64,000 nt of DNA, taken from a virus. The stretch lies in the IMG/VR virus record IMGVR_UViG_3300032053_000040, positions 1 to 64,000 of that record; one strand, written 5' to 3'. The position numbers and the translations under genes are program-made. Below the pieces are notes generated by a model. The model was given only the letters and a program-made list of their open reading frames with translations, was not told the origin of the DNA and ran no database searches. This document shows, piece by piece, positions 24,197-64,000 of this stretch. The stretch's first letter is position 1; every line of letters starts with the position of its first letter.

Positions 24197-25486
24197 ATGA
24201 AGGTCCCGGTATCTGATGTTTACGTTCCAGCATCTAGGCGAGCTCTTGATCTGGAGAAGGTAAAGGAGATTGCTGATAGCATCCGCGAGATAGGTTTGCT
24301 CTATCCTATTACTATTGTTAAAAACGATATTCCTGATGCCAAAGAACCCTGGAGACTTGTCGCCGGCAGGCACCGCCTGGAAGCAGCCAGGACGGAGCTT
24401 AAACAGGACGAGATCGAGGCCACCGTAATTGATCTCGACATGCTGCATCAGGAGTTGGCTCAGATAGATGAGAACCTCATGCGTGCCAGATTACATTTCA
24501 TCGATGAAGGCGAAGCCCTAGCCCGCCGAAAAATCATTTGGGGGATACTATATCCCGAGACAAAGGTCGGCGGAGACAGACGCAGCCAGGAGTATATATC
24601 AAAATCAAAACGAAATGATTTCAAGCAGAAAGGATTCGCTCAGGATGCGGCTGCCAAACGTCACGTAACCCCCAGGACTATCCATCAGGAAGTCCAGATA
24701 GCGACACGGCTCGCGGGACCTGTTAAAGATCTGGTGAAGAAAGAGGATATGCAAAAGGCGGAAGTTCTTCGACTGACCAGGTCCCCTCCAGACGAGCAGA
24801 TGAAACTTGCCAAGATGATCGAAGCCGGCGAGGCCAAGACCGTCCGAGAGGCTGAGAAGTTACTCTACAAAGAGAAGACGATCCAACGAGGTAGGAAGGC
24901 CAAGGTCCAGCTCGATGCCTTGTTTGAGGTAGGCGACTATGAGGAGCTCATGGGTCTCATGACCGAGGGCAGTATCTCGGCGATAGTGTCCCATATCCCG
25001 CCAGGAATCGATCTGGAGGCCTTCCTCAAGCACTCTATCAGGGTGCTTGGCCCAGAGGGACAGATGGCACTCCAAACCACGCCAGGAGGTCTGAGACAAA
25101 TCCTGGCCCATATCCCAGAGGATCTAAACTATGTCTGGACGATTGCAAACCTACTCAGCCATACCACCGACAAACCCGACGAGATCAGGTCGAGTTGGTT
25201 GCCAGTCGTCCTGCTGGCCAAGAATGGGATACGCCAGGGAGGTTCGGATGTTATCGTGCGGAGCAGCGAGAACCTCAAGTCTACAGAAGATTGCGCGGTT
25301 CAAATAATCAATCGCGTCAGCAAACCGGGTGATATAGTCCTGGACCCCTTCTTAGGAGAGCACATCATGTCTTTGATGGCCGCGCACATAGGTCGAAAGT
25401 TTAGGGCTATATCCAAAGACCAGGAATCAGTCGACCTTGCAAAAGGACGTCTGGAGGCTCTCCAGGGAGTCCTCTTCCAGATCTAA
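24197..25486 (+). CDS. ParB-domain protein fused to a degenerate DNA methyltransferase domain
   Basis: SIREIGLLYPI, LVAGRHRLEA, IDENLMR; C-terminal PGDIVLDPFLG. Confidence 0.85.
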   Translation: MKVPVSDVYVPASRRALDLEKVKEIADSIREIGLLYPITIVKNDIPDAKEPWRLVAGRHRLEAARTELKQDEIEATVIDLDMLHQELAQIDENLMRARLHFIDEGEALARRKIIWGILYPETKVGGDRRSQEYISKSKRNDFKQKGFAQDAAAKRHVTPRTIHQEVQIATRLAGPVKDLVKKEDMQKAEVLRLTRSPPDEQMKLAKMIEAGEAKTVREAEKLLYKEKTIQRGRKAKVQLDALFEVGDYEELMGLMTEGSISAIVSHIPPGIDLEAFLKHSIRVLGPEGQMALQTTPGGLRQILAHIPEDLNYVWTIANLLSHTTDKPDEIRSSWLPVVLLAKNGIRQGGSDVIVRSSENLKSTEDCAVQIINRVSKPGDIVLDPFLGEHIMSLMAAHIGRKFRAISKDQESVDLAKGRLEALQGVLFQI

Positions 25487-27118: not shown

Positions 27119-28162
27119 ATGGTAAGATGTGACGAATTCTACAACAAGTGGCAACGCTGCGGAAACTTCTGCGAGAAGCATCCCAAGACGGCCGAAAGGA
27201 TAGAGAAGTTTCTCGATAAAATCCTGCCCCTTCTCGAAGAAGAAGTGGCAAAAAGTGAAATACTGAAAGGAGCCCTAAAACCGAAAGGGCCAATCATCTC
27301 AGAAACAGCATCCCGTGAACTTCTTGGCGAAGACGAAAAAACTCGCCGGGAGATGGCAAGGCAAATAGTAAAGAAGGCAGAAGAAAAGGCAATTGACGGA
27401 AAGCCCGTAATGGTGACAGCACCAGAGGTCAAGAACATCTGGGACGTGGTTCAACGGACGGCTGAAAAGAAGTCCAAGTTCAACCTGACCAACGACAACA
27501 TCGAGTGGGCTCGGTACACCTGGAACCCGGTCACTGGTTGCCTGGGTCCGGATGGAAAAGGTGTATGCAGCTACTGTTATGCCCGGGACATCTCCATGCG
27601 TTTCTACCATACCTTCGAGCCTACGTTCATTCCCGAACGCCTTCATGCTCCGCAGAACACAAAGGTTCCGCAGAACGCCATAGAAGAGCCTGGGTATAAG
27701 AACGTCTTCGTTTGCTCTATGGCCGATCTTTTCGGTGATTGGGTCGACAAAACCTGGATCGAACGTGTCATGCTGGCAGTTACTGAGGCACCCCAGTGGA
27801 CGTTCATATTTCTGACCAAGAACCCAAAGAGGCTCCTGGATACAACCTGGCCGGAGAACGCTTGGGTAGGGACTACTGTGGACGTCCAGGCCCGGGTAGA
27901 GAAGGCCTGCGAGGTCTTCAGAGATCTTGAGGCTCCGGTGAAGTTTCTCAGTTGCGAACCTCTCCTCGAACCTCTGGAGTTCAACGACCTGTCGATGTTC
28001 GACTGGATGATCATAGGCGGCCAGAGTGAGGTCAGCTCCTCCCCGGCATTTCAGCCGGATTGGATGTGGGTCGAGTCTCTATTGATCCAGGCCCGCAAGT
28101 TCGGCCTGAAGGTCTACTTCAAACCGAACCTGGAGAGCAGACCGAAGGAGTTCCCGACATGA
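27119..28162 (+). CDS. DUF5131 / phage Gp37-Gp68 radical-SAM-like protein
   Basis: IEWARYTWNPVTGC, CSYCYA, FVCSMADLF, LTKNP, SCEPLL, IIGGQS. Confidence 0.9.
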   Translation: MVRCDEFYNKWQRCGNFCEKHPKTAERIEKFLDKILPLLEEEVAKSEILKGALKPKGPIISETASRELLGEDEKTRREMARQIVKKAEEKAIDGKPVMVTAPEVKNIWDVVQRTAEKKSKFNLTNDNIEWARYTWNPVTGCLGPDGKGVCSYCYARDISMRFYHTFEPTFIPERLHAPQNTKVPQNAIEEPGYKNVFVCSMADLFGDWVDKTWIERVMLAVTEAPQWTFIFLTKNPKRLLDTTWPENAWVGTTVDVQARVEKACEVFRDLEAPVKFLSCEPLLEPLEFNDLSMFDWMIIGGQSEVSSSPAFQPDWMWVESLLIQARKFGLKVYFKPNLESRPKEFPT

Positions 28163-48637: not shown

Positions 48638-48883
48638 ATGCAAGTCTCCATAATAAACTCGGACGAGGGACTCTTCAAGGTCACCAGCGCCAAGGATGAA
48701 TCAAAGTTCTACGAGGTCCAGCTAGATCCCCGGGTGGCAACCTGTACCTGTCCACATTTCAAGCTCAGGTGTGCCAGGGCTGGCCTGGAATGTAAACATA
48801 TATCCCAAGTTAGAAGCATTTTGGTGGATGTGAATAATGAAAACAATTGTTTTGACACAGGGATATGTAACAATGGTGGATGA
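48638..48883 (+). CDS. SWIM zinc-finger protein
   Basis: CTCPHF...CKHI. Confidence 0.8.
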   Translation: MQVSIINSDEGLFKVTSAKDESKFYEVQLDPRVATCTCPHFKLRCARAGLECKHISQVRSILVDVNNENNCFDTGICNNGG

Positions 48884-49331
48884 TTGGAATTACGAACGAT
48901 TGAATCGATATAAGTGGCACGTAACTAAAAGGCATGTTTATTTGTATGCAACCCGCAGTTATAGTTGTAAAGGGCACAAGAATAGTATCGGAATGCACAA
49001 TGTAATAATAGGAATAAAAGGCGTTGATCATATTAATGGCAATGGTCTAGATAATCGCGAATGCAATCTAAGACCTGCAAGCAGATCACAAAACGCCGCG
49101 AACAGAGGGCCGCAAAAAAATAACACAAGTGGATATAAAGGTGTATATTGGCACGCAAAAATGAAAAAATGGCGGGCAATGATTATGGTAAAACCAAAAC
49201 TGAAATCCCTTGGTCTTTTTGACGATATCAAAGATGCGGCAAACGCCTATAACGAAGCCGCGAAAAAATATTACGGGAATTATGCAAAATTAAACAATCC
49301 GAAGATAGAGTTCGAGGAGGCAGAAACGTGA
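48837..49331 (+). CDS. HNH endonuclease with AP2 domain
   Basis: VDHINGNGLDNRECNLR; SGYKGV...KWRA...LGLF...AANAYN. Confidence 0.92.
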   Translation: MKTIVLTQGYVTMVDDWNYERLNRYKWHVTKRHVYLYATRSYSCKGHKNSIGMHNVIIGIKGVDHINGNGLDNRECNLRPASRSQNAANRGPQKNNTSGYKGVYWHAKMKKWRAMIMVKPKLKSLGLFDDIKDAANAYNEAAKKYYGNYAKLNNPKIEFEEAET

Positions 49332-51623: not shown

Positions 51624-51946
51624 GCATGGCAAAACCATTCCGGCAGCTCACAAGAGCAGAAAAGGAAAAGATAGCACAGGCCAGGGAGTTATACAAGAAC
51701 TTCCTGGACGAGGACGAAGACACGAAGGGAATACTCGACAAGATCTACGGAGCCGGGAAATGGCACGCGCTATTCGATGCTCAAAGAAGGGCCCTGTGGA
51801 GGACCGGACGGGAGATGAAGTGGGAAGGCCTCATAAGCCACTGTCGAGACTGCAACGACTTCTGGAAATTCACAGCAGAAGAGACTCTGGAAGTCACAGA
51901 CAACGACACGTTCTACATGGGGTTGGGGTCAGTAGCTCCCCCTTAA
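51620..51946 (+). CDS. Hypothetical protein
   Basis: ORF track. Confidence 0.6.
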   Translation: MSMAKPFRQLTRAEKEKIAQARELYKNFLDEDEDTKGILDKIYGAGKWHALFDAQRRALWRTGREMKWEGLISHCRDCNDFWKFTAEETLEVTDNDTFYMGLGSVAPP

Positions 51947-51970
51947 TTCCCCCTCCATTTTTGAGGTCTC

Positions 51971-52768
51971 ATGGAAAAATGTGATCGTTGCGGCGATCCA
52001 GGCGCATCCTTCGTGGAGACGGATCCGGAGTGCCGGCTGGGTATCTTCATGTGCCCAAAGTGCAAACTATGGTGGGATAGTGAAAAGCGTGGTGAAGCTA
52101 TATCGAGATACATTGTAATAGGCAGCTCCCCGTGGTCAACAAAAGTTTATCAAGAGACGATCTGCACGTTTCCTGGTGAGTGGTATTTCCTAGATGCCCC
52201 CGATCTTGACCACCTCAGATCAGTGAAACCGTCTCTGGTTTTCTTCCTCCACTATTCCAAAAAGGTTCCTGACGAAATCGTAAATGGCTTCGAATGTGTC
52301 TTGTTTCATATGACAGATGTTCCGTTTGGTCGTGGAGGCAGTCCTCTCCAAAACCTGATAACCAGAGGTCTTCGGAAGACAAAGCTCACAGCACTGCGGA
52401 TGACAAGCGACTTCGATGCTGGCCCCGTCTACCTTCAAAAAGATCTTTGCCTAGAAGGGAACGCAGAGGAGATATACCTCCGAGCAACACGTCTTGCAGC
52501 AGAAATGATCAGGCAAATTTCTCTCGAAAGGCCTATTCCGAGGCTACAAACCGGAGATGTAACAGTATTCAAAAGACGCAGGCCTGAAGAAAGCCAAATC
52601 TCTACGGCCTCTTCTCTACTGGAACTACACGATCACATTCGTATGCTCGATGCTGAGGGGTATCCTAAAGCCTTCATAGATTTCGATGGGTTTAGGTTTG
52701 AGTTCAGCCGTGCTGCTCTCTATAGCGATCGGATAAAAGCCGACGTGGAGATCAGAAAGTTTATATAG
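51971..52768 (+). CDS. Formyltransferase (Fmt-like, sugar N-formyltransferase type) with N-terminal zinc ribbon
   Basis: FHMTDVPFGRGGSPLQN, DAGPVY, HIRMLDAEGYP. Confidence 0.85.
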   Translation: MEKCDRCGDPGASFVETDPECRLGIFMCPKCKLWWDSEKRGEAISRYIVIGSSPWSTKVYQETICTFPGEWYFLDAPDLDHLRSVKPSLVFFLHYSKKVPDEIVNGFECVLFHMTDVPFGRGGSPLQNLITRGLRKTKLTALRMTSDFDAGPVYLQKDLCLEGNAEEIYLRATRLAAEMIRQISLERPIPRLQTGDVTVFKRRRPEESQISTASSLLELHDHIRMLDAEGYPKAFIDFDGFRFEFSRAALYSDRIKADVEIRKFI

Positions 52769-52794
52769 TCGTATCCTGAACAGATATCAAGACG

Positions 52795-53463
52795 ATGTTC
52801 GAATCTCCGGAGAGAGTACTCGTCGTCGCAGCGCATCCCGATGATGAAGTTCTTCTTTGTGGTGGATCTATCGCTAAACTCTCAGAGCGTGGCTCATCTG
52901 TAAACATCCTTTTTCTCTCAACTGGCGCGGTCTCTCGCACAGGCGATTTTTCAGAGGTAAACATTCTGCAAAACTACGCAATCGAAGCCAGCAAGATTCT
53001 TGGATCAAGTATCTTATCATTCGACTCTTTTCCCGATAACGAGATGGATTCCCTACCACGTTTGGATATCATAAAAAAGGTAGAATCTTTTATAAATCAC
53101 GTAAGACCGCAAGTCATATTCACTCATTATCCTGGTTGTGCAAACATCGATCACAGACGCACATGCGAAGCAGTTATGATCGCCACCAGGCCCTGGAAAG
53201 AACGGATCAACGTCTTTGGAGGATCGGTCTTGAGCAGCACGGCCGTCCTCTATCCGTCTGAGTGGAGTCCGCAATTCTTCGTTCACCTCTCGAAAAGCCA
53301 CGTTAAAAAGAAGCTTAAAGCTCTATCAATGTACATCTCCGAAACCGGGCCTATGCCTCATCCACGATCAAAAGCTGCTGTTTTATCAGATGCCATACTG
53401 ACTGGCTCGAGGTGCTATTCAAAATATGCAGAATCTTTTATGGTCTTAAGGGAGCACTGGTGA
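52795..53463 (+). CDS. PIG-L/LmbE family de-N-acetylase
   Basis: AAHPDDE, IFTH...IDHR, YAESF. Confidence 0.92.
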   Translation: MFESPERVLVVAAHPDDEVLLCGGSIAKLSERGSSVNILFLSTGAVSRTGDFSEVNILQNYAIEASKILGSSILSFDSFPDNEMDSLPRLDIIKKVESFINHVRPQVIFTHYPGCANIDHRRTCEAVMIATRPWKERINVFGGSVLSSTAVLYPSEWSPQFFVHLSKSHVKKKLKALSMYISETGPMPHPRSKAAVLSDAILTGSRCYSKYAESFMVLREHW

Positions 53464-54431
53464 TGGATCTCGACGGAGCAAACGTACTGATAACTGGTGG
53501 AACAGGGACATTCGGTCGAGAAGCCTTAAAACTCCTCCCCCAGTTCAGGCCTCGCCGGCTAATCGTTTTGAGTCGGGACGAGTATAAGCAGCATTATCTT
53601 CAGAAAGAGTTTCCAGAAAACGATAGCTCCATATATCGCTATATTCTTGCAGACGTCCGGGATAAAGATAAACTCTCAGTTGTGACTCGTAACGTTGACG
53701 TCATCTTTCATGCAGCGGCACTTAAGCAAGTTCCCTTCTGCGAGACGAACCCCGACGAAGCCATCCAAACCAACGTATTAGGTACGAAAAACGTTTGCGA
53801 AGCCTCCATGAAGAACGACGTTGACTCTTTGATATTCGTCTCCTCGGACAAAGCAGTAGAGCCAGTAAACCTCTACGGAGCTACCAAGATGGTAGGGGAG
53901 CGGCTAGTGAACCAGTACAACTTCAAGTCCGACCACACGAAATTCTTCACAGTCCGTTACGGGAACGTTTTCAACAGCCGGGGCTCAGTAGTGGAACTTT
54001 TTCACCAGCAAAAAAGCGAAGGGGTTTTGACGTTAACTCATCCAGACATGACGAGGTTCTTTTTCCTCATCCAAGATGCCATCTTGTTTGCGGCTGGCGT
54101 AGGCGGTGCAGGAGGAGAAATTTTCGTTCCGGCGATGAAATCCATGCGAATATGTGACCTAGCAAAAGCGATCGCTCCTGAAGCAGAGATCAAGATCATA
54201 TTAAGGCGTCATGGCGAAAAGGTTCACGAAAAGCTTATCTCTTCCGACGAAGCGGACAGGACAGTATTCAAAAATAATAAATATATAATTCTTCCAAATG
54301 ACAGGAGGTTCAGTTTCTCGAGATATAATAATTCTCCCAAACAAGAAGGTCTTATCTACACGTCCGATCGCTGCTGCATGGATCTCGATGGAGTCAAAGA
54401 ATTCTTAAGAAATCACGACAGAAATATATAA
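53463..54431 (+). CDS. pseB: UDP-GlcNAc 4,6-dehydratase (PseB/FlaA1 type)
   Basis: ITGGTGTFG, SRDEYKQ, HAAALKQVP, SSDKA..P.NLYGATK, RYGNV..SRGSV. Confidence 0.9.
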   Translation: MDLDGANVLITGGTGTFGREALKLLPQFRPRRLIVLSRDEYKQHYLQKEFPENDSSIYRYILADVRDKDKLSVVTRNVDVIFHAAALKQVPFCETNPDEAIQTNVLGTKNVCEASMKNDVDSLIFVSSDKAVEPVNLYGATKMVGERLVNQYNFKSDHTKFFTVRYGNVFNSRGSVVELFHQQKSEGVLTLTHPDMTRFFFLIQDAILFAAGVGGAGGEIFVPAMKSMRICDLAKAIAPEAEIKIILRRHGEKVHEKLISSDEADRTVFKNNKYIILPNDRRFSFSRYNNSPKQEGLIYTSDRCCMDLDGVKEFLRNHDRNI

Positions 54432-54484
54432 ATACAAACAATGACATACAAGATACCAACTAAAATTAAAAAAGGTGATGGGCG

Positions 54485-55192
54485 GTGGCTAAAGAAAAGA
54501 GACCTATAAAATATATCGAAGGCTACTCCGAAAGCCTCTGGAAATCGCTAGTCGTCAAATCAATCCGGATGGGGTGGATAAATGGCCTGGTGGAAGCTGA
54601 AAAAAGGCTTCCCAAATCTACTATACAGAGGTTCTTAATCAGCGGTATATTTGAAGATCTATGGCCTCATCCAAGCGAAATATGGGCAGCGATAGATATG
54701 GCGAACCGTGGGGATTACGCAGGTCTCTTGAGCATAGACCCCCACCATGGAAAAGGTCTCTCTGAAACGTACTGCAATTATCACCCAACGTCGGACGAGT
54801 ATTGGTACAACAACCGTGAGTTTATATTCGAGAAGCTGAAAGAAAATCTCCCGGGCCTCTACGTGCCCACAAATTCGTTAGGGAACGCTCTTAACTGGAT
54901 GGTCCATAAACATCTCATCCCCCAAAAATCGCGAACGCTGGACGAAACCCCATTTAGAGGCATCCCTCCAGCATTCGCCGATCAGCACACGCCAGAGGGA
55001 TGGGAAAGAAAAACCCCCTTTACTCTCCTCTGCGGCCATCCCAAAAGCCATCGCATGCTGGGCTCGCAAGTGCAAAAGATTGGATGGGATGGCATCAGGC
55101 GTCAGGTTCATTCGGAAGGGATCCTGCCTAAAAAAGAAACACTCCCCCCAACAACAAGGCAAGGCCAGCAGACTCTCATGGTGTTTTTCTAA
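54485..55192 (+). CDS. Hypothetical protein resembling the MgsA/RarA C-terminal helical domain
   Basis: KSLVVKSIRMG...FED...PPAFADQHT.EG; no Walker motifs. Confidence 0.5.
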   Translation: MAKEKRPIKYIEGYSESLWKSLVVKSIRMGWINGLVEAEKRLPKSTIQRFLISGIFEDLWPHPSEIWAAIDMANRGDYAGLLSIDPHHGKGLSETYCNYHPTSDEYWYNNREFIFEKLKENLPGLYVPTNSLGNALNWMVHKHLIPQKSRTLDETPFRGIPPAFADQHTPEGWERKTPFTLLCGHPKSHRMLGSQVQKIGWDGIRRQVHSEGILPKKETLPPTTRQGQQTLMVFF

Positions 55193-55193
55193 A

Positions 55194-56369
55194 ATGCTCA
55201 ACGAAGAACCAAAAGAAGTGCTCTGGCTCGTGGCCGGAAACGAAGAAAATGAAGGTATGATACCGATCATGGAGAAATACAGAAGCCTCTCAAATCTCCT
55301 CAACACCAGGCACGTTCTTGTTACTAATTCGAAAAACTATAATATTTTTCAGGGGTCAACTTATTTTTTCGATCCGGGAACTAAGCAACTCAGCCTTCCA
55401 GAGAAATATAAATTTCTAGTTAATATGGCAGATATGCACGGCCTATTCGATTCGGCTGATATGATGGTTATAGGTGGGTTCTATCCAGTAGTGCTTATTA
55501 TGGCGTATGCTATTGATTGTAAGATGACCTCGAAAACAAGAAAGTTCTGCACCAAACCGATAATAGTAATGAACCCCAAAATCCCCGAAGGAGAACTATC
55601 CGACATTAATCCGATCTACCTCGATCCTTTCTGGTGGATGTTAGGGCATTACGATAACATTACTCTTGCAGTCGGCCAGCTCAAAAACGAGATGTATCTT
55701 GCTAAAAAGTATCTCCTCAAGTTCTATCCTCGTGCTAAAGTGAAGCAAACGCTGCTGCCCTTCGTAGAATATACCTACGATGATAGTCCCTGGTCTGAAA
55801 AGGAAGACAAAGTAATCTGGACAGGAAGGTACAATTCTCTTAAACAACCGGATCTGGCACTGAAGACGCTTGTGCTCTTGGAATCAGTTGGAATCAAGAC
55901 CGAGATGTACGTCCCTACTGCAAAAGCATCAAATACCGGCAAGGTACGAAAGGCACAGAAACTTCTTTCCGAAGTCAATATCAACTTAGATAGAGAGAGC
56001 TTCTGGCAAAAAGCTGGTTCTGCAAAGGTCATCCTTATCACCCCCTTGATAGAGGGGTTTGGAACAGGCATGATGGAAATAATCAGTCGGGGAGTTATAC
56101 CTGTTATATGGGGCGCAAAATGGAACAGAGATTACATCTCCCCGGACGAGGATTGGCCTCTGGTATTCAAGTTGCCTGGAGAGGGTGCTGAGATGTGTAA
56201 ACTTGCCCTCAAAGATTACGATTACTATGCACGCCTTCTGAGAGATAACTTAAAGAAGCGTTACTCAAGGGGGTACGATTGGGAGTTCTTATTAAAAGGC
56301 GTTTGGAAGTCGCATATCAACGGCAGGCATAGCGAAGAGTTCTCATTAGAGTATAAAATTTATGACTAA
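55194..56369 (+). CDS. GT-B (GT4-like) glycosyltransferase
   Basis: WTGRYNSLK and EGFGTGMMEIISRGVIPV. Confidence 0.85.
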   Translation: MLNEEPKEVLWLVAGNEENEGMIPIMEKYRSLSNLLNTRHVLVTNSKNYNIFQGSTYFFDPGTKQLSLPEKYKFLVNMADMHGLFDSADMMVIGGFYPVVLIMAYAIDCKMTSKTRKFCTKPIIVMNPKIPEGELSDINPIYLDPFWWMLGHYDNITLAVGQLKNEMYLAKKYLLKFYPRAKVKQTLLPFVEYTYDDSPWSEKEDKVIWTGRYNSLKQPDLALKTLVLLESVGIKTEMYVPTAKASNTGKVRKAQKLLSEVNINLDRESFWQKAGSAKVILITPLIEGFGTGMMEIISRGVIPVIWGAKWNRDYISPDEDWPLVFKLPGEGAEMCKLALKDYDYYARLLRDNLKKRYSRGYDWEFLLKGVWKSHINGRHSEEFSLEYKIYD

Positions 56370-57051
56370 AAATAATAAAGCAGCCCAAGATACGTATCTC
56401 TCGCTGGAAGAGATAGATCTGGATCTTGTAGACGACAACGAATTGTCTGTAAACGAAGAGGATGATCACACGTTCCAGCGTTTGAGAGACGAAATCAAAT
56501 CGCGTGGAATGGTAGACGTCCCGACCGTTCGGCCTATCGAGGGGGGTAGATATAAGGTTCTCGGCGGGCGTCATAGACTAGCGGCTTCAAGGGCAAATGG
56601 TAACAAAAAAGAACACGTAGTTGTCTACCGTAGAGCCATAAAATCCAAGGAAGACGAATTCAACCTCGTCAACAACCTGAACGCCATCAAAGGCACTCTC
56701 CGCAAAGGGAGCATCCTGAAAGTTATCAAGCAGCAGAACCTCGATCCCACGAAGCTCGATATACATAAAATGCCTTATGATCTTCTGATGCCTGTGATAA
56801 CTAGCGAGGATTTCGAATCCATCCAGAATGAAGCCCAACGTAACGCAAAGATCAACGCCATGTCCCTCTCGATAGCGAAAGAGATTGCAGCTACGCTTAT
56901 AGACGAGAGGGACGAGCTCCTCTCTTTCATGGTCGTCAAGGACAAGCCGGTCGCAGTGATCCGCATCCCCTTCCAGAGTTCGAAAGAGGCTCGGGAGAAG
57001 GCGAACTCTTTGAAAAACATAATCCAGAAAGCCCTGGAGGGCATAATTTGA
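56362..57051 (+). CDS. ParB/Srx-domain protein
   Basis: EIKSRGMVDVPTVR...YKVLGGRHRLAA...LNAIKG. Confidence 0.85.
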   Translation: MTKNNKAAQDTYLSLEEIDLDLVDDNELSVNEEDDHTFQRLRDEIKSRGMVDVPTVRPIEGGRYKVLGGRHRLAASRANGNKKEHVVVYRRAIKSKEDEFNLVNNLNAIKGTLRKGSILKVIKQQNLDPTKLDIHKMPYDLLMPVITSEDFESIQNEAQRNAKINAMSLSIAKEIAATLIDERDELLSFMVVKDKPVAVIRIPFQSSKEAREKANSLKNIIQKALEGII

Positions 57052-57758
57052 AAGTGTTCATGAACCAGCCCAACTATCTGCCTTGGTATGGCTTCATGGG
57101 CATGATGTCTCAAGCTGACGTCTTTCTTGTGATGGATGAGATCCAGTACGAAAAAGAGGAATGGCAGAATCGCAACAGGATCACAAGCAGCAACCCCAAA
57201 AGGTGGGAATGGATTACCGTTCCTGTCAGCGCCTCATCGAAATCCAAGATCTCAGAAGTGTCTTCGGTTGGAGCGTGGCGCAAGCAGCACATAAGTCAAA
57301 TCCACCACGCCTATAGCAGAGCAGCCTATTATGAGTGCGTCTCAGGGGATATCTATTCTGCTATATGGGGATCTACAAACTCTTTGCTAGATATCGATAT
57401 GAGGTCAACGAAAACTCTAATGGAGGTCTTGGATTTCAAACCGGATATCAAGTACATGTCCGATCTAGGATGCACCTCCAAAAACCAGCAGCTTGTCCAG
57501 GATCTAGCCGGTTCGGTAGGCGCTGATCAGATTATCGTCCCGAAGAACGCATTGAAATATTGGGATCTCTCTAAGAAGACTAGCCAAGATCTGTTGATCC
57601 ACGAATTCCCAGATATCTCTTACAAGCATTTAAATATCTTCGTGCCAAGATTATCAGTAATAGACATGCTATTCAATCTAGGCCCGAAGACCAGCAGGAA
57701 TCTCATCATGGACTACGAGAAGTATGCCATAACAGAGGTAATTCATGGAACCGGCTGA
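57048..57758 (+). CDS. wbqC: WbqC-family protein
   Basis: QPNYLPWYG, WQNRNRI, WITVPV, LSVIDMLFNLG. Confidence 0.9.
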   Translation: MKVFMNQPNYLPWYGFMGMMSQADVFLVMDEIQYEKEEWQNRNRITSSNPKRWEWITVPVSASSKSKISEVSSVGAWRKQHISQIHHAYSRAAYYECVSGDIYSAIWGSTNSLLDIDMRSTKTLMEVLDFKPDIKYMSDLGCTSKNQQLVQDLAGSVGADQIIVPKNALKYWDLSKKTSQDLLIHEFPDISYKHLNIFVPRLSVIDMLFNLGPKTSRNLIMDYEKYAITEVIHGTG

Positions 57759-58374
57759 ATATAGTCAGGCTCTCAGGGAATTTAGTGATGATCCCAGGGC
57801 GGTAGGGTACAACGGTCCTCAGTCCCAGGATCTCATGTTCTCAAGGTTCCTTCAGCTTTTCAAGTTTGAACGAGATCAAATCCGTGTTCATGAAGTGGGA
57901 TGCGGATTATGCCATTTCAAGGAATACCTGAAAAACAGGCGAAGAGTTCTCTACTCTGGCAATGATACTCTCAGGGATATGGTCGTCTTCTCCAGACAGA
58001 AGCACCCGGAAACTGCTATTTATCACGGCCGCTTACGGGACAATCTCCAATTTCTTTATACGGATTACGTGGTTGCCATCACGACCTTCAACGAATCACC
58101 AAAAGAGGAGTTGCTGGATGAGCTGCAAGTTATGTACGCGGCCGCTAAAAAGGGGATTGCCTTTGATTGCTTCTCAAGTTACGTCGATTTCATAGATAAG
58201 AAGATTACTTATATAGACCCTGCGGAGATGCTATCTTTTTGTCTCCAAACCCTCTCCAGGCATGTTTTTTTAGATCACAGCCTCCCCAACTACAGATATG
58301 TGGTCTTTGTCTACAAACCTGCTTTTATTGATTCGATATATCCTAATAAATCACAATATTTTGCAAAAAAATAA
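57745..58374 (+). CDS. Class I SAM-dependent methyltransferase
   Basis: HEVGCGLC and AAKKGIAFD...YVD. Confidence 0.8.
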   Translation: MEPAEYSQALREFSDDPRAVGYNGPQSQDLMFSRFLQLFKFERDQIRVHEVGCGLCHFKEYLKNRRRVLYSGNDTLRDMVVFSRQKHPETAIYHGRLRDNLQFLYTDYVVAITTFNESPKEELLDELQVMYAAAKKGIAFDCFSSYVDFIDKKITYIDPAEMLSFCLQTLSRHVFLDHSLPNYRYVVFVYKPAFIDSIYPNKSQYFAKK

Positions 58375-58389
58375 CTGAGCGTGTTATGA

Positions 58390-59043
58390 ATGGAACCAGA
58401 AAAAACACCACCGGGACAAGTTGCTAAGAAGTACACTCTGATAGTTAACGGCGAGGAGATGCTTCTACACGATCCGTCGCCAGAGGTTGTGGAGAGCCTA
58501 CGTGCCTCGGGACATGAAGTCAGGGAAGAGGTAATCGCTAAGAAGCCGAGGTTCTCCAAGATCACCTCGGAGATAAAGGGGAGGCTTCTGGAGTTGCTCG
58601 CTTTGGGGAATACATTTATGCACTCTTGTAACGTGTTGGACGTCTCTCCGTCTTACATAATCGAGTACAGGGCCAAATATCCTGCTTACGATGCCAAAGT
58701 CCGAGCAGCGATGAAGACCCAGCAGGCTGCTATGGCAGATGCTCTGTACACTACTGGAGTCGGCGGTAACGTTACTGCCCAGATATTTTTCCTCGTGAAC
58801 CGCACCAGGTTCTTAAGGAGCAGCGATCCTGACAAGTGGATGAACACCCAGAACATCGAAGTTAGCGGGCCAGGGGAAGGGCCACTTGAGCTAATGTTTC
58901 TCTCGCCTGAAGAACGGGAACGCCGAATATTAGAGCTTTTGGATAAAAAAGCAAAGGATCTGCCCGGGGCTTCTGTGCGACCCAAGTTCCGTGAGCTGGC
59001 AAAAAACAAAAAGAACACGAAAAATGGGGCTAAAAGAGGCTAA
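58390..59043 (+). CDS. terS: Terminase small subunit
   Basis: HTH plus ALY...GNVTAQIFFLVNR...DKW; upstream of TerL. Confidence 0.8.
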   Translation: MEPEKTPPGQVAKKYTLIVNGEEMLLHDPSPEVVESLRASGHEVREEVIAKKPRFSKITSEIKGRLLELLALGNTFMHSCNVLDVSPSYIIEYRAKYPAYDAKVRAAMKTQQAAMADALYTTGVGGNVTAQIFFLVNRTRFLRSSDPDKWMNTQNIEVSGPGEGPLELMFLSPEERERRILELLDKKAKDLPGASVRPKFRELAKNKKNTKNGAKRG

Positions 59044-59063
59044 AAAGAATCGAAAGATGAAAT

Positions 59064-60620
59064 TTGGTTGCGAGTTTGAAACAACCGACCGCGAGTAAAA
59101 CTTCCATGGCCGCTTCAACGTGTAAACAATCCTCTCTGAATAATCCATACACGTTGAGTTTACTCCAGGAAGACGAGAAGTACCAATCCGAAGAGCACCT
59201 TCTAAATTTCACGACTGTTGCCTGGCCCATAATAAACCCGGCCACAACGTTTCTCCCCAACTGGCATATCGAATTGATCTGCGAATATCTGATGGCCGTG
59301 ACTCTCGGCGAGATCAAACGCCTAATAATAAACATCCCGCCAAGGTACGCGAAAAGTACCCTCGTAAGCCAGATGTGGCCGTGCTGGGAGTGGCTCCATA
59401 TCCCATCCCAAAGGTGGGTGTTCGCAAGCTATGCCTCCGACCTGTCGGTCCTGCAAAGCATAAAGCGCAAAGACATCATCCTCTCTGATTGGTACAGGAT
59501 GAACTGGTCTGAAATAGTAAAGCTCCGGGAAGATCATAATAGGAAGGCCGATTTCGTCAGTACAAAGAAAGGAGCTATGTACTCGACCTCAATCGGCGGC
59601 CAGGTAACGGGTATGGGTGGCAACCGGCTGGTTATCGACGACCCCACGAGCCCTCAAGAGGCCGAGTCAGAAGCAATGAGGGAGATGGCGAACACCTGGT
59701 ACTCAAATACGTTCCAATCTCGTCTCGATGACAAACAAACAGGATCTATAGTCCTAATCCAGCAGAGGCTCCACCAGAACGACATGACTGGATACCTCAC
59801 TGGCTTGGACGTCATGGATCTAAACAGTCATGTGCTCGAGGGAGAAGGCTGGACGTTACTAAGGATCCCGCTCATCTCCGAGCAGGACGAGGACATCTAT
59901 TCGCCTATCGGCAACAAGAGGCTCATAGTATCCCGCAAAGAAGGCGATCTGCTCTGGCCCGAACGAGAAGGCATGGAGCAGATCAAGGAGTACCAAAAGT
60001 TTGAGTACATTTTCGCTTCGCAACAGCAGCAACGCCCCTCCCCCAAGAAAGGCGCGATGTTCGAACGAGATTGGGTGCAGCAATACGATCACCTCCCCCC
60101 CGATATAGAAGCCTATATTATGTCAATAGATGCCACCTTCAAGGGCGGTCCCAAGTCGGCTTTTGTGGCAATCCAGGTTTGGGCTTGGAAGAGACCGAAC
60201 ATGTACTTCGATTACCAGGTTAGGGAGAAGATGAGTTTCACCAAAAGTCTCGACGAAATAATCAACGTGCTCGCTCTTTATCCTGGTCTCACTTCAAAAT
60301 TGATAGAAGAAGCCGCAAACGGCGATGCCATAATCGACGTGCTATCGGAGAAGATCGGGGGGATTGTGCCTGTTCGCCCCGTCGTTTCAAAAGAGTCACG
60401 GGCTTCATCCGTTACCCCCCTTTTCAGGTCAGGCAACGTCTACGTTAAGAAAGCTCCCTGGACACACGCCTTCATAAACGAACTGCTGAACTTCCCAGGC
60501 TCAACGTACAAAGACCAGGTAGATGCCATGAGCCAGGCCATATATTACATCCAAGAAGTGTTCGGAGGTCTCGGGAAAGAGAAACGAGCTCTGTTCGCTT
60601 TCGGGAGAGCCATACGATGA
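59064..60620 (+). CDS. terL: Terminase large subunit
   Basis: INIPPRYAKS, IDDP, QQRLHQND, IEEAANG, SKESRA, DQVDAMSQA; start codon uncertain. Confidence 0.95.
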   Translation: MVASLKQPTASKTSMAASTCKQSSLNNPYTLSLLQEDEKYQSEEHLLNFTTVAWPIINPATTFLPNWHIELICEYLMAVTLGEIKRLIINIPPRYAKSTLVSQMWPCWEWLHIPSQRWVFASYASDLSVLQSIKRKDIILSDWYRMNWSEIVKLREDHNRKADFVSTKKGAMYSTSIGGQVTGMGGNRLVIDDPTSPQEAESEAMREMANTWYSNTFQSRLDDKQTGSIVLIQQRLHQNDMTGYLTGLDVMDLNSHVLEGEGWTLLRIPLISEQDEDIYSPIGNKRLIVSRKEGDLLWPEREGMEQIKEYQKFEYIFASQQQQRPSPKKGAMFERDWVQQYDHLPPDIEAYIMSIDATFKGGPKSAFVAIQVWAWKRPNMYFDYQVREKMSFTKSLDEIINVLALYPGLTSKLIEEAANGDAIIDVLSEKIGGIVPVRPVVSKESRASSVTPLFRSGNVYVKKAPWTHAFINELLNFPGSTYKDQVDAMSQAIYYIQEVFGGLGKEKRALFAFGRAIR

Positions 60621-61756
60621 CCCGGGAAACTTTTTTGCCTTATGCACGACAGAAGATTGAGGAAGATGACATCCGGGCCGTGAACGAAGTTCTAAGATCG
60701 GATTTCATAACAACTGGCCCGAAAGTAATAGAATTTGAAGAATTTTTCTCAGATGTAGTCGAAGCGGAATATGCAGTCAGTTTCAGTTCCGGGACAGCAG
60801 CACTCCATGGGGCCATCTACGCTGCAAATATCGCAAAGGACGATGAAGTTGTGACCTCTCCGCTAAGTTTTTGCGCCACCTCAAATTGCGTTCTCTACCA
60901 GGGAGGACGCCCACTCTTTGCAGACGTAAGTTATGATACACTCAATCTTAACCCCAACGAGGTTGCCGATTTAGTCTCTACAAGAACCAAGGCCATCTTA
61001 GCAGTGGATTATGGAGGCCATCCCGCAGATCTGGATAGTTTAGCTCAAATCGCGGAAGATTCCAATCTTCTTCTGATAGAAGACGCATGTCATGCCCTCG
61101 GAGCCAAATATAAGGGAAAACCAATTGGCGGAATTAGTGACATGACAATTTTCTCTTTTCATCCGGTAAAACATATAACAACTGGAGAAGGAGGGATGGT
61201 TACAACCAACGACTGTGATCTTGCAAGACGTCTGACTCTTTTTAGGAACCACGGAATAGGACTTGATTTTAGGCAACGAAACCTGATAAGAACGTGGAAA
61301 TACGAAATGACCGATCTCGGATATAATTACAGGTTGACTGATATCGCATCTGCGCTTGGCATCTCCCAACTACGCAAACTCCCCGAAAATTTAAAACGTC
61401 GTCGGGAGATAGCAGCCATCTATAATAACGCATTTCAAAAAATACCGGGTCTGGTGTTGCCGAAGGAGCGATCGAACTCGATCTCGTCCTGGCACCTCTA
61501 TCCTGTTAGGTTCGATTTCAATATTATAAAATCGTCTCAATCAAGAATCTATTCGGACATGCACGCCGAAAACATAGGCGTTAACGTTCATTATATTCCG
61601 ATTTATGAACATCCATATTATAAAAATCTAGGTTATTATAAAAAATGTTCTGTAGCGGATGCCGCTTATAAATCAATCGTCTCTTTACCGATGTTCCACG
61701 GAATGACAGATTTTGATGCGGCAGATGTGATAGAGACATTAAAAAATGTGATTTAA
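60617..61756 (+). CDS. pseC: DegT/PseC family sugar aminotransferase
   Basis: LPYARQKI, SSGTAALH, EDACHALG, SFHPVKHITTGEGG, GYNYRLTD. Confidence 0.9.
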   Translation: MTRETFLPYARQKIEEDDIRAVNEVLRSDFITTGPKVIEFEEFFSDVVEAEYAVSFSSGTAALHGAIYAANIAKDDEVVTSPLSFCATSNCVLYQGGRPLFADVSYDTLNLNPNEVADLVSTRTKAILAVDYGGHPADLDSLAQIAEDSNLLLIEDACHALGAKYKGKPIGGISDMTIFSFHPVKHITTGEGGMVTTNDCDLARRLTLFRNHGIGLDFRQRNLIRTWKYEMTDLGYNYRLTDIASALGISQLRKLPENLKRRREIAAIYNNAFQKIPGLVLPKERSNSISSWHLYPVRFDFNIIKSSQSRIYSDMHAENIGVNVHYIPIYEHPYYKNLGYYKKCSVADAAYKSIVSLPMFHGMTDFDAADVIETLKNVI

Positions 61757-61774: not shown

Positions 61775-62455
61775 ATGGTAGCAAGAATAGAAATAGAAGA
61801 GATCAAGCCACCAAGGCACGTATCTGATCTCAGGTGCAGTCCCTGCCCAGTCGGAGAAATAATTCGCCCACACGCGCATCACATCAGCGAGCCCTGGCGC
61901 AGTCCATGCCTATCCAAAGAAACGAGGGACCCACACACGCACACGCACCAAGTCAACACGCTTTGGCAGGTTAGTGACGGCAACTTTTATGTTGCTCATC
62001 CCACGCAACCGATAAAGGATCTCCCCGTAAAGCTCGAGGTAGGCGTTAGGCCATCCGGTCTGACTGAGATCCACACGCAGAAGATTATGTTTGCGGCAGG
62101 GATGTTCCCTCACCCCTATCAAGAGAAGCGAAGGATAGTACGATGGTTCAACGTGGCACGACTAAATGAGCTCCCAAGAGACTACCTAAACGGACGCGGG
62201 CCCAGGTATTTCGAAGATGATGGCAATGTAACCCTCAATTGGCCCACTCCAAATAGTTTACTATGGCCAATTAAGACAGTGATTCTTCACGAAGGGATGA
62301 TCCTGTCAGAAGAAACGTACCAAGAAGTTCTCCATTGGATGCGGTGTGCCGGCGCCAGGCTCGGAGCAATACAGAAGAGGGAGAGGCAAAAGCAAGACGA
62401 AAAGCCCAAGGACATCCCAAAACCGCTCGAACCTACCTACGTGGACATAATTTAA
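61775..62455 (+). CDS. Hypothetical protein
   Basis: ORF with RBS. Confidence 0.65.
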   Translation: MVARIEIEEIKPPRHVSDLRCSPCPVGEIIRPHAHHISEPWRSPCLSKETRDPHTHTHQVNTLWQVSDGNFYVAHPTQPIKDLPVKLEVGVRPSGLTEIHTQKIMFAAGMFPHPYQEKRRIVRWFNVARLNELPRDYLNGRGPRYFEDDGNVTLNWPTPNSLLWPIKTVILHEGMILSEETYQEVLHWMRCAGARLGAIQKRERQKQDEKPKDIPKPLEPTYVDII

Positions 62456-62515: not shown

Positions 62516-64000
62516 GTGGGGGCGATAGAAATTGTAGCAAAAGCAGCATCAAACAAACCAGCTAAGTTAAGGTCATCAAAACGAACTGATTTCCCGCTGA
62601 TCAAATCTTTTTTCTCGAGATCCAAAGGCGGATCGGAGATCCTGGCGATCCAGGAGATCATAGGTAAAGGCATCCGAGAGTTCCTGATCACGGAGATCTC
62701 ACCAGAGAACAGGTTTGCCTTCTATCGGTCGATGGAATCGTTAGACCCAGAGCTACTGATCGCCAGGAACTATATCTCTCTGATGATCCACCGAAATTTT
62801 CTCGGCATGGCACTCGACACAGTGGATCCGTCCTATATGCCTTCACCCGATTTCCTTGCCCGCGTGAACTCAATCCTGGCCGAACTCAAGTTCACTTCGA
62901 AACTGTTCCCTCTGATGAAAGATTTCGTCCGGGGCAATGCGTTCGCTAGGATAATCAGAAGCGACGTAGACAACCATATCAAAGATGTCGAGATCCTGCC
63001 GGCCGATTCAATAACGATAGTCTCCGAGGAGTTCACGACCACAAAGAAGAAGAGTATCCTGATCACCGAGGCGGATTATTACATAATTAACGAGCAGAAG
63101 GACGTTAACAGAGAGAAGTATCCTATCGATCCCAACCGCGTGGAGGGGCCAGAGGTCGAGAATGATGAGATCTTGCCTGAAATAATCCTCTCTCCCGCGA
63201 ACATGATTCATTTTGCCTGGGATGCAGAAGCCAACGCTTGCAAGGACAAGTTAGGCCGAGACACGTATAACATCTGGGGCAAATCGCCTTACGACTCGAT
63301 TGTAGTCTACGTAAAAGCCAAACTGATGATCATGACCGACTACCTACGATGGGTCCGTATGGGGATCCCGAGGTGGACGGCAAGCGTAGACATGTCCCTC
63401 TTGAGCGATCTTAATCAGTATACCGGGACAGACGACGAACGAGTAGTTCTGGCGGAAAGGCAAGGCAAGGAGCTCTTTGACAAGATTGAAGAGAGTTTCT
63501 ACTATCTAGACCAGGACGAAGAGAGCCCGACTTTTGACAAGAAACTACCTGTCGAACCGGATGCTATATTCTTCCATACCAGCGATCTCACATTCGAGCA
63601 GAAGGGCGGCGCCAACTCTCCAGACGTCCAGATCCTCGGTATAACGCAGGAGTGCAATAGGGCGATAGCTTCGGCAATGGGCGTGCCGATGTCGTTGCTA
63701 GGTTATGAGGAAGGCTCCACCTATGCGATTGGTCGTGTTACTTCTCGGTTCACAAGTGGCATAGGCGGAGGGCTCCTAAGATCACTCGAGGACACCCTCA
63801 TCACGTTCCTGAAACGGGAGTTCACTCAACGAGGCTGGGCAACGTCTCCCAAAGACTGGGATAACCTCTACACGGACTACGAGCGCGACGATACTGAAGA
63901 ACTCATGGCCGTCCAGGCGGCTGAGACTGCCAAGGCAACGGCGATCAACTCTATAGCGACGGCTGCCAGGACGTGTTACGAGGGTAGCTTGCTGACCAAA
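62516..64000 (+). CDS. Portal protein (3'-truncated by the window)
   Basis: Frame open from GTG 62516 to the end; NMIHF...WGKSP and IASAMGVPMSLLG; follows TerL. Confidence 0.8.
   Translation, partial: MGAIEIVAKAASNKPAKLRSSKRTDFPLIKSFFSRSKGGSEILAIQEIIGKGIREFLITEISPENRFAFYRSMESLDPELLIARNYISLMIHRNFLGMALDTVDPSYMPSPDFLARVNSILAELKFTSKLFPLMKDFVRGNAFARIIRSDVDNHIKDVEILPADSITIVSEEFTTTKKKSILITEADYYIINEQKDVNREKYPIDPNRVEGPEVENDEILPEIILSPANMIHFAWDAEANACKDKLGRDTYNIWGKSPYDSIVVYVKAKLMIMTDYLRWVRMGIPRWTASVDMSLLSDLNQYTGTDDERVVLAERQGKELFDKIEESFYYLDQDEESPTFDKKLPVEPDAIFFHTSDLTFEQKGGANSPDVQILGITQECNRAIASAMGVPMSLLGYEEGSTYAIGRVTSRFTSGIGGGLLRSLEDTLITFLKREFTQRGWATSPKDWDNLYTDYERDDTEELMAVQAAETAKATAINSIATAARTCYEGSLLTK

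Follow-up and report, generated by a model that had tools for sequence, protein, structure and literature searches.

Our analysis concerns a cassette of amino-sugar enzymes, a glycosyltransferase (GT) and a ParB-fold protein that is packed around the genes of the small and large terminase subunits (TerS and TerL) in the IMG/VR virus record IMGVR_UViG_3300032053_000040; the whole stretch analyzed, called the window below, is the first 64 kb (64,000 nucleotides) of this 77,291-bp record. The linkage of the cassette to the packaging genes is real and conserved, and the system is neither singular nor essential. Judging from sequence comparison, the GT-ParB-TerS link is conserved among deeply diverged, otherwise unrelated viruses, and the data show the ParB-fold protein and a putative MgsA_C-like protein as fixed partners of the GT. 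As the target of the GT we tentatively favour the replicated DNA of the virus itself, shortly before it is packaged.

The initial annotation had read eleven genes, from a formyltransferase to a PseC-type aminotransferase, as one tight run. All of them stand where it had put them, on the + strand, and the overlaps it described are real (GT and ParB, 8 nt; ParB and WbqC, 4 nt; WbqC and the methyltransferase, 14 nt; TerL and PseC, 4 nt). These genes, the two that follow them and the block that is missing from a close relative are as follows.

51790..57621, + strand: 5.8-kb block, formyltransferase through most of WbqC including GT and ParB, missing from contig L004 (blastn)
51971..52768, + strand: Fmt-like sugar N-formyltransferase (PF21553, 85 bits; PDB 1ZGH, E 1.6e-58)
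52795..53463, + strand: PIG-L/LmbE-family de-N-acetylase (PF02585, 83.5 bits)
53412..54431, + strand: PseB-like UDP-GlcNAc 4,6-dehydratase, start codon uncertain (PF02719, Polysacc_synt_2, 288 bits)
54485..55192, + strand: putative MgsA/RarA C-terminal-domain-like helical protein of 235 aa, upstream of the GT (AlphaFold2 (AF2) model and relatives at the same position)
55194..56369, + strand: predicted GT4-type GT-B glycosyltransferase with EX7E motif (AF2 fold; PF00534 matches in the family)
56362..57051, + strand: ParB-CTPase-fold protein with an N-terminal nucleotide-binding domain and a predicted C-terminal domain (PF02195 and PHROG ParB families)
57048..57758, + strand: WbqC-family protein (PF08889, 165 bits)
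57745..58374, + strand: probable class I methyltransferase dependent on S-adenosylmethionine, 209 aa (motif I and ESM atlas; no match to a hidden Markov model)
58390..59043, + strand: small terminase subunit TerS (phrog_309, E 1.8e-10; homologues after ParB in related loci)
59064..60620, + strand: large terminase subunit TerL (phrog_38, E 3.6e-95; Terminase_6C)
60617..61756, + strand: PseC, UDP-4-amino-4,6-dideoxy-N-acetyl-beta-L-altrosamine transaminase (TIGR03588, 456 bits, above the cut-off of 423.5)
61775..62455, + strand: 226-aa protein between PseC and the portal gene, without family match (64% identical in contigs L003 and L004)
62516..64000, + strand: portal protein that extends beyond the window end (weak Phage_portal and phrog_12 matches; 99% identical in L003 and L004)

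Profiles of the GT and ParB families, run against viral contigs, gave about 20 further loci, and single-protein scans of viral contigs with the GT or with WbqC gave no matches. It is evident that the GT lies directly upstream of ParB in about 18 of the 20 informative loci, even where GT identity falls to 24%, with TerS next in nearly all. The whole order of 235-aa/MgsA_C protein, nucleotide-sugar short-chain dehydrogenase/reductase (SDR), (SGNH hydrolase), GT, ParB, TerS and TerL was likewise found in about 18/20. Moreover, a 2.6-kb metagenome contig (L026) carries PIG-L, GT, ParB and WbqC in this order at about 55% identity. The terminase linkage, for which the initial annotation had proposed a neighbourhood search in viral databases, is thus borne out across deeply diverged viruses. 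On the other hand, that annotation had taken ParB for a generic neighbour of terminase genes, and ParB and the MgsA_C-like protein appear instead as fixed partners of the GT.

To see what else these viruses have in common, the open reading frames (ORFs) of the whole genome were compared with those of three cassette-bearing genomes, G001 (49% GC, incomplete, 44%), G002 (41 kb, 56% GC, 100%) and G003 (32 kb, 40% GC, 93%). GT, ParB and TerS were the only genes common to the virus and all three. In addition, the 235-aa gene was in common with G001 and a DUF5131 gene with G002. Between G002 and G003, only the block of MgsA_C-like, SDR, SGNH, GT, ParB, TerS and TerL genes was common, apart from one weak match in a long ORF. 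The DUF5131 protein (phage Gp37/Gp68), at 27119-28162 of the window and also at L109:382-1119, is a rare non-cassette gene in common with G002 and a possible candidate for a base-activating enzyme. At one locus (L115), the 235-aa gene, GT and ParB are followed by a TerL of the window type with no recognisable TerS, and the nearest relatives of this locus have a different TerL cluster; the TerL types of two other loci were assigned by Pfam.

The sugar genes around this core are lineage-specific. In one clade the SDR is a bona fide GalE (382 bits, over the cut-off). Another clade has a 4,6-dehydratase-like SDR with SGNH and, in L109, a sulfotransferase after TerL, at the place of PseC here. The virus of the window has PseB, PseC, formyltransferase, PIG-L, WbqC and methyltransferase, and many relatives have a GT without PIG-L or WbqC. 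The lineage-varied sugars, as predicted from these genes, look like diversifying selection. In the GalE clade, a PAPS-reductase-domain protein (L114:1769-2677) and a RadC-like JAB protein (L114:4154-4603) are encoded upstream of the cassette.

The GT is predicted to start more likely at 55194 than at 55080. Its sequence alone had no Pfam match, and PF00534 (Glycos_transf_1) was matched by 8 of the 27 aligned family members. The AF2 model (pLDDT 89) has a GT4-type, two-Rossmann GT-B fold, which was matched at Z 21-25 over 300-350 residues. The structural matches include BshA, MshA, LmbT, PglH, TarM, the GT of phage HY126 (Z 22) and the chlorovirus GT 3oy2 (Z 22). The stretch E-GFGTGMM-E in the translation corresponds to the EX7E motif (E287...E295), in which E295 is invariant in alignment A4; the broad GT alignment held no conserved stretch usable for scanning. 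The family is rare, with 42 representatives among 1.84 billion proteins, and no tblastn match to the GT was found among 50,697 cultured or deposited phage records. The initial annotation had suggested a structural comparison with the T4 alpha- and beta-glucosyltransferases (AGT and BGT); these were outside the 50 best Foldseek/VIA matches of the model, which shows neither membership nor exclusion.

The ParB-fold protein gave only 22.6 bits with ParB_N as a single sequence, and its family profile matches ParB/Spo0J/Noc structures at E 1e-7. Its GxxR motif (G69-x-x-R72) is invariant in alignment A6. The Pfam scan found no HTH_ParB in it, while the neighbouring canonical ParB of locus L125 has one. 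A second ParB-fold protein of the genome, at 24197-25486 of the window, is a fusion of ParB_N with an N6_N4 DNA methyltransferase.

The 235-aa protein has an all-helical AF2 model (pLDDT 88.8), and the top five of 48,161 chains compared with it are MgsA C-terminal domains (Z 3.9-5.1, residues about 10-88). The proteins at its position in L109 and L110 match Pfam MgsA_C (PF12002), and hhalign of the 235-aa subfamily against the MgsA_C-positive subfamily gave a weak link (E 0.0026). The protein itself had no Pfam match, its profile had no match to PDB sequences, Foldseek found nothing at E <= 0.001, and the ESM atlas returned only chance-level, terminase-like matches. Because the structural Z is low and the profile-profile link is weak, we call the protein MgsA_C-like with reservations. 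It was also considered as a metal-dependent base hydroxylase, and this was rejected since most of its conserved acidic, His, Lys and Arg residues align with motifs of the MgsA_C-positive proteins (alignment A7), where the THHG motif is a subfamily-specific exception.

With regard to the sugar, family membership points to a Pse-type route. PseC passed its family cut-off. The best NCBIfam match of the dehydratase was TIGR03589 (PseB), with 309 bits under a cut-off of 408. The formyltransferase also has weaker matches to ArnA and sugar formyltransferases. No match to NeuB/PseI (PF03102) at E <= 0.1 was found in six frames of the complete 77,291-bp genome, and the annotated ORFs included no pseH, pseG or pseF, for which no targeted search was made. 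Since NeuB/PseI is missing from the genome, the virus alone would make no nine-carbon sugar and this is not full pseudaminic acid synthesis, which agrees with what the initial annotation had read from the PseB-like and PseC genes. These results support a predicted truncated Pse-type branch, PseB/PseC without PseI, that would feed a tailored amino sugar. A short conserved part of PseC, at 61024-61524 of the window, showed about doubled or higher contig depth in 4/4 runs, and the many loose ends there reveal recruitment of contigs from other organisms.

As judged from their families, PseB would convert UDP-GlcNAc to a 4-keto-6-deoxy intermediate, and PseC would then yield the 4-amino sugar UDP-4-amino-4,6-dideoxy-L-AltNAc. 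The Fmt-like enzyme may N-formylate the 4-amine, and the GT4-type GT would move the sugar onto its acceptor. After this transfer, PIG-L may strip the 2-N-acetyl group, and WbqC and the methyltransferase may decorate the freed amine or hydroxyls; we infer this order of transfer, PIG-L and WbqC/methyltransferase. An acylating role of WbqC is a conjecture. Its profile had no PDB relative by sequence, and the literature search found no paper that gives WbqC a function. The methyltransferase call for the 209-aa protein is supported as a lead only, by the class-I motif VHEVGCG and by its ESM-atlas score of 0.98 (212/256 shared features) with Methyltransf_25/11 clusters; the protein had no Pfam, NCBIfam or PHROG match.

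The cassette is accessory and dispensable. Two contigs, L003 and L004, are close relatives of the window (portal 99% and TerL 82% identical), and the blastn match of L004 stops at 51789 and restarts at 57622, with a few bases of microhomology at the junction. Formyltransferase, PIG-L, PseB, the 235-aa gene, GT, ParB and three quarters of WbqC are lost there; the final ~137 nt of WbqC are retained, as are the methyltransferase, TerS, TerL and PseC. The state of L004 is a deletion, because the leftover fragment of WbqC remains, and the 5.8-kb block is therefore dispensable. No ParB of the cassette family was found elsewhere on the 27-kb contig of L004. A second candidate deletion variant, suggested by a junction of 52863 with 57369 in run X2, was rejected as too weak, because one side of the junction spans only 23 letters. 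At the protein level, PseC is 97% identical in L003/L004, against 89% for the surrounding DNA, a sign of purifying selection. Moreover, the intact cassette is present on contigs from other sediment samples, with one copy diverged by about 7%.

The genome has direct terminal repeats, a completeness rating of 100% and 49% GC, and all of its credible genes are on the + strand. From GT to portal, the genes overlap or are separated by gaps of <= ~60 nt, mostly <=20 nt; because they overlap or nearly abut, this layout suggests a single late transcription unit. The cassette runs in the direction of the packaging genes, closely packed with them, and is probably expressed late. The viral gene content includes a contractile-tail baseplate protein, and the MCM helicase is nearest to MCMs of archaeal tailed viruses, with 35% identity. 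The viral proteins are not acidic, with isoelectric points lacking a halophilic look, and the source DNA is present in sediment metagenome runs; together with the MCM match, this means that the host is probably a non-halophilic archaeon. The initial annotation had spoken of an archaeal tailed virus; the MCM makes an archaeal host probable and not proven, because some bacteriophages also carry MCM. Elsewhere in the genome we observed a full-length TnpB (OrfB_IS605 with a Cas12f1-like TNB domain) at 1059-2270 of the window and, a short distance upstream of the cassette, an HNH-AP2 homing-endonuclease-like gene at 48837-49331. The structural module encodes a MuF head protein that is extended by a long C-terminal part (L002:555-2012) and a protein of 516 aa that weakly matches Macro and YadA-stalk families (L002:7837-9387).

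A cellular comparison is offered by WbqC. Its best homologues are <=36% identical, and the best 80 genome loci (L027-L106) are all bacterial. WbqC is followed there by PIG-L in 58/80 and by a DegT aminotransferase in 64/80, and the loci also include a GT4 enzyme (41/80), a WecA-like initiating transferase (40/80), a PHP protein (33/80), an AsnB-like amidotransferase (21/80) and a class I methyltransferase (16/80). WbqC, PIG-L and DegT form a conserved three-gene module of bacterial surface-polysaccharide loci, often preceded by PHP and often followed by the WecA-like gene. The viral toolkit thus appears typical of amino-sugar tailoring of surface polysaccharides, sharing with the bacterial modules the three families, a class I methyltransferase and GT4 enzymes. 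On the other hand, the identity is only about 30%, the bacterial loci lack ParB and terminase, and the viral genes lie scattered around ParB, TerS and TerL. Because there are only such distant cellular relatives and because of this dispersal, the cassette does not look like a set of host glycan genes taken over wholesale in recent times. Passive capture, which the initial annotation had regarded as fatal to its reading, thus does not fit as a recent event, given the WbqC identity to bacteria and the rarity of the GT family.

Among cultured phages, a weak WbqC match followed by a profile search led to Vibrio phage V-YDF132 (ON075462.1, 56790-63581; L160). It has PIG-L, two WbqC-like genes, GT and ParB, then a gene at the TerS position and TerL. 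Its GT (513 aa) matches the GT-family profile of the window at E 1.6e-14, and its 'nucleoid occlusion protein' matches the ParB profile at E 3e-10. Similarly, Vibrio phages VH2_2019 and vB_VpS_PG28 have a GT with an adjacent 'noc' gene. V-YDF132 resembles our virus in having PIG-L, WbqC, GT and ParB directly before the terminase and no ThyA-like or TET/JBP gene. It differs in its longer GT, the hosts of these phages are bacteria, and the examined stretch showed neither PseB/PseC nor an MgsA_C-like gene. The idea that the system is singular to one archaeal virus is therefore not tenable, as cultured Vibrio phages carry a cassette of this kind. The PIG-L of V-YDF132 has been described as a lysis-system enzyme, and the descriptions of V-YDF132 and vB_VpS_PG28 hold no data on restriction or DNA chemistry (PMC9413028, PMC9067683).

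What may favour DNA as the target is above all the company of the GT, because both the ParB, in which no helix-turn-helix was detected, and the MgsA_C-like protein come from DNA-transaction families. The set moves with TerS through unrelated genomes and GT-ParB is kept where terminases differ, and the deletion in L004 takes the MgsA_C-like, GT and ParB genes together and spares TerS and TerL; both facts are in favour of a DNA target. Lineage-specific sugars would also fit an arms race with nucleases. Moreover, the only studied phage ParBs of the architecture predicted here, in which a nucleotide-binding and a C-terminal domain are present and a DNA-binding domain is missing, are activators of a DNA-modifying enzyme on double-stranded DNA (PMC13229309), which again favours DNA. 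By analogy with these ParB activators of phage thymine dioxygenases, the ParB-like protein would be a DNA-side partner that brings or activates the GT, and the varied sugars would serve as armour against host nucleases. In the same direction, 5mYOX pathways co-occur with GTs (31%), ParBs (27%) and terminases (19%) (PMC13229309), and the ParB fold of phages is mostly fused to DNA methyltransferases (PMC12704722). Phage HY126, whose DNA carries arabinosylated 5-hydroxycytosine (PMC13326640), has a GT that is as close to ours (Z 22) as many other GT4 enzymes are.

Several facts weigh against a DNA target. The fold of the GT does not single out DNA-acting enzymes, since its top matches act on small molecules, lipids and sugars. 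Loci L121 and L129 have ParB-TerS-TerL without a GT, so that ParB may be part of the packaging module and the GT just its neighbour. In L121, an intein-bearing anaerobic ribonucleotide reductase NrdD (L121:3-1946) is encoded directly upstream of ParB-TerS-TerL, which fits anoxic hosts. The sulfotransferase and SGNH enzymes of the relatives are typical of glycan and glycoprotein tailoring. The main objection, a strong one, is that PF00303 (thymidylate-synthase-like) and PF12851 (TET/JBP) are absent from the genome of the window, G002, G003 and V-YDF132. All known DNA glycosylation requires a base hydroxylated via a ThyA homologue or 5mYOX (PMC13326640; bioRxiv 10.1101/2023.12.21.572611), though PF12851 can miss divergent 5mYOX enzymes (PMC13229309).

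The main alternative, possible if somewhat doubtful, is that proteins of the virion or of packaging (capsid, portal, tail or terminase-associated) are glycosylated during assembly, with ParB adjacent as a member of the packaging module. This would account for a cassette that sits within the operon of late structural genes, where a tailoring gene separates TerL from portal (PseC in our virus, the sulfotransferase in L109), and for ParB-TerS-TerL without GT. SdgB and TarM, which are deposited with peptide or cell-wall-polymer ligands, are among the structural matches of the GT. Tailoring by N-formyl, methyl, sulfate and O-acetyl groups is characteristic of surface glycans, the WbqC-PIG-L-DegT trio of bacteria stands in polysaccharide loci with WecA-like and GT4 genes, and no base-activating enzyme of PF00303 or PF12851 is encoded. 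Virus-encoded enzymes glycosylate the virions of mycobacteriophages and giant viruses. However, protein glycosylation leaves unexplained why the GT keeps ParB and MgsA_C-like neighbours across viruses that have no detectably similar capsid, portal or tail genes, and why the 235-aa-GT-ParB set persists where terminases differ (L115). An unlikely role for the cassette is remodelling of a host envelope glycan, such as an S-layer, a pilus glycan or a cell-wall polymer, that would block superinfection or keep progeny from sticking to debris. The cellular WbqC, PIG-L, DegT and GT4 relatives do work in lipid-linked surface-polysaccharide loci, and the GT resembles TarM, PglH and PglA. However, no membrane-transferase or flippase family was seen among the scanned ORFs, for which no targeted search was made, the genes are apparently co-transcribed with late packaging genes and not with early ones, the cassette occurs in small lytic-looking genomes of 31-41 kb, and the linkage with ParB and the MgsA_C-like protein would be unexplained.

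It is quite improbable that the cassette makes a soluble infection metabolite like bacillithiol or mycothiol, in which the GT4 enzyme would add HexNAc to a small acceptor, PIG-L deacetylate it and WbqC acylate the amine. BshA, MshA and LmbT are among the best structural matches of the GT (Z 23-24), the top NCBIfam matches of PIG-L are BshB1, BshB2 and MshB, and WbqC and PIG-L are adjacent in most of the bacterial loci. However, these matches are all under the family cut-offs (BshB1, 59 versus 182 bits) and unspecific within the GT4 and PIG-L families, BshC and MshC were not found, the GT is similar to BshA and MshA by fold only, relatives with a GT but no PIG-L or WbqC are many, and the adjacency of ParB and TerS has no explanation. 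Least probable is that these are host-derived glycan genes carried as passive cargo with no viral role of their own. The loss of 5.8 kb of the cassette from L004 makes it non-essential, as cargo would be, but the purifying selection on PseC, the conservation of the core in many viruses and the lack of a close cellular donor speak against cargo.

A DNA target, our tentative preference, places the cassette next to known systems. The 5mYOX-ParB clusters (O'Toole et al., PNAS 2026, PMC13229309) have a ParB of the build predicted here, with a nucleotide-binding and a C-terminal domain and no recognised DNA-binding domain, likewise paired with a modifying enzyme and often accompanied by GTs, sugar epimerases, methyltransferases and terminases. 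In contrast to them, no 5mYOX/TET-JBP gene was found in the genome of the window and three other complete or near-complete cassette genomes, and the fixed partner of ParB here appears to be a GT4-type GT with an MgsA_C-like protein. Sugar hypermodification of phage DNA is similar in its virus-encoded GT and nucleotide-sugar enzymes, lineage-varied sugars and GT-B fold. It is known from the T4 alpha- and beta-GTs on 5-hydroxymethylcytosine and from clusters of C5-MT, 5mYOX and GT (Pyle et al. 2024, bioRxiv 10.1101/2023.12.21.572611), and from arabinosyl-5-hydroxycytosine in RB69, DLP3 and HY126 (PMC13326640). Subclass III DNA GTs are reported to be similar to MshA and PglH (bioRxiv 10.1101/2023.12.21.572611; PMC13326640). 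Unlike in these systems, there is no ThyA homologue or dioxygenase here for the acceptor hydroxyl, and a Pse-type 2,4-diamino-2,4,6-trideoxyhexose is not reported on DNA in this cited literature on phage DNA hypermodification.

The cassette would share with pseudaminic acid biosynthesis (PseB, PseC, PseH, PseG, PseI and PseF) the first two steps from UDP-GlcNAc, while formyltransferase, PIG-L, WbqC and methyltransferase would replace the later steps and NeuB/PseI is absent. Virion glycosylation of mycobacteriophages Che8, Corndog and Myrna, of Mimivirus and Megavirus and of chloroviruses is similar in that the virus encodes amino-sugar enzymes and transferases, and we know of no ParB or terminase linkage in such systems. 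Taken together, the cassette appears to join a type of phage ParB-glycosyltransferase system beside the terminase, and to be distinct by its predicted GT4-type GT, its Pse-type branch, the absence of a known base activator and the probable archaeal host.

Finally, the core of GT, ParB and MgsA_C-like protein is rare in databases, and a related form of it occurs in three cultured Vibrio phages. A rather unlikely further possibility is that this core is a DNA glycosylation machine independent of a thymidylate-synthase homologue and of O2-dependent TET/JBP enzymes, which would have a new acceptor chemistry, work in anaerobes and, in the virus of the window, transfer an N-formylated, methylated 2,4-diamino-2,4,6-trideoxyhexose. 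If proteins are the target, the cassette would represent a widespread and modular virion-glycosylation system that travels with packaging genes. If DNA is the target, as we tentatively favour, it would represent a class of sugar hypermodification without a known base-activating enzyme in viruses of anoxic habitats, possibly archaeal, and the phage ParB fold would gain a second role as a glycosyltransferase partner.

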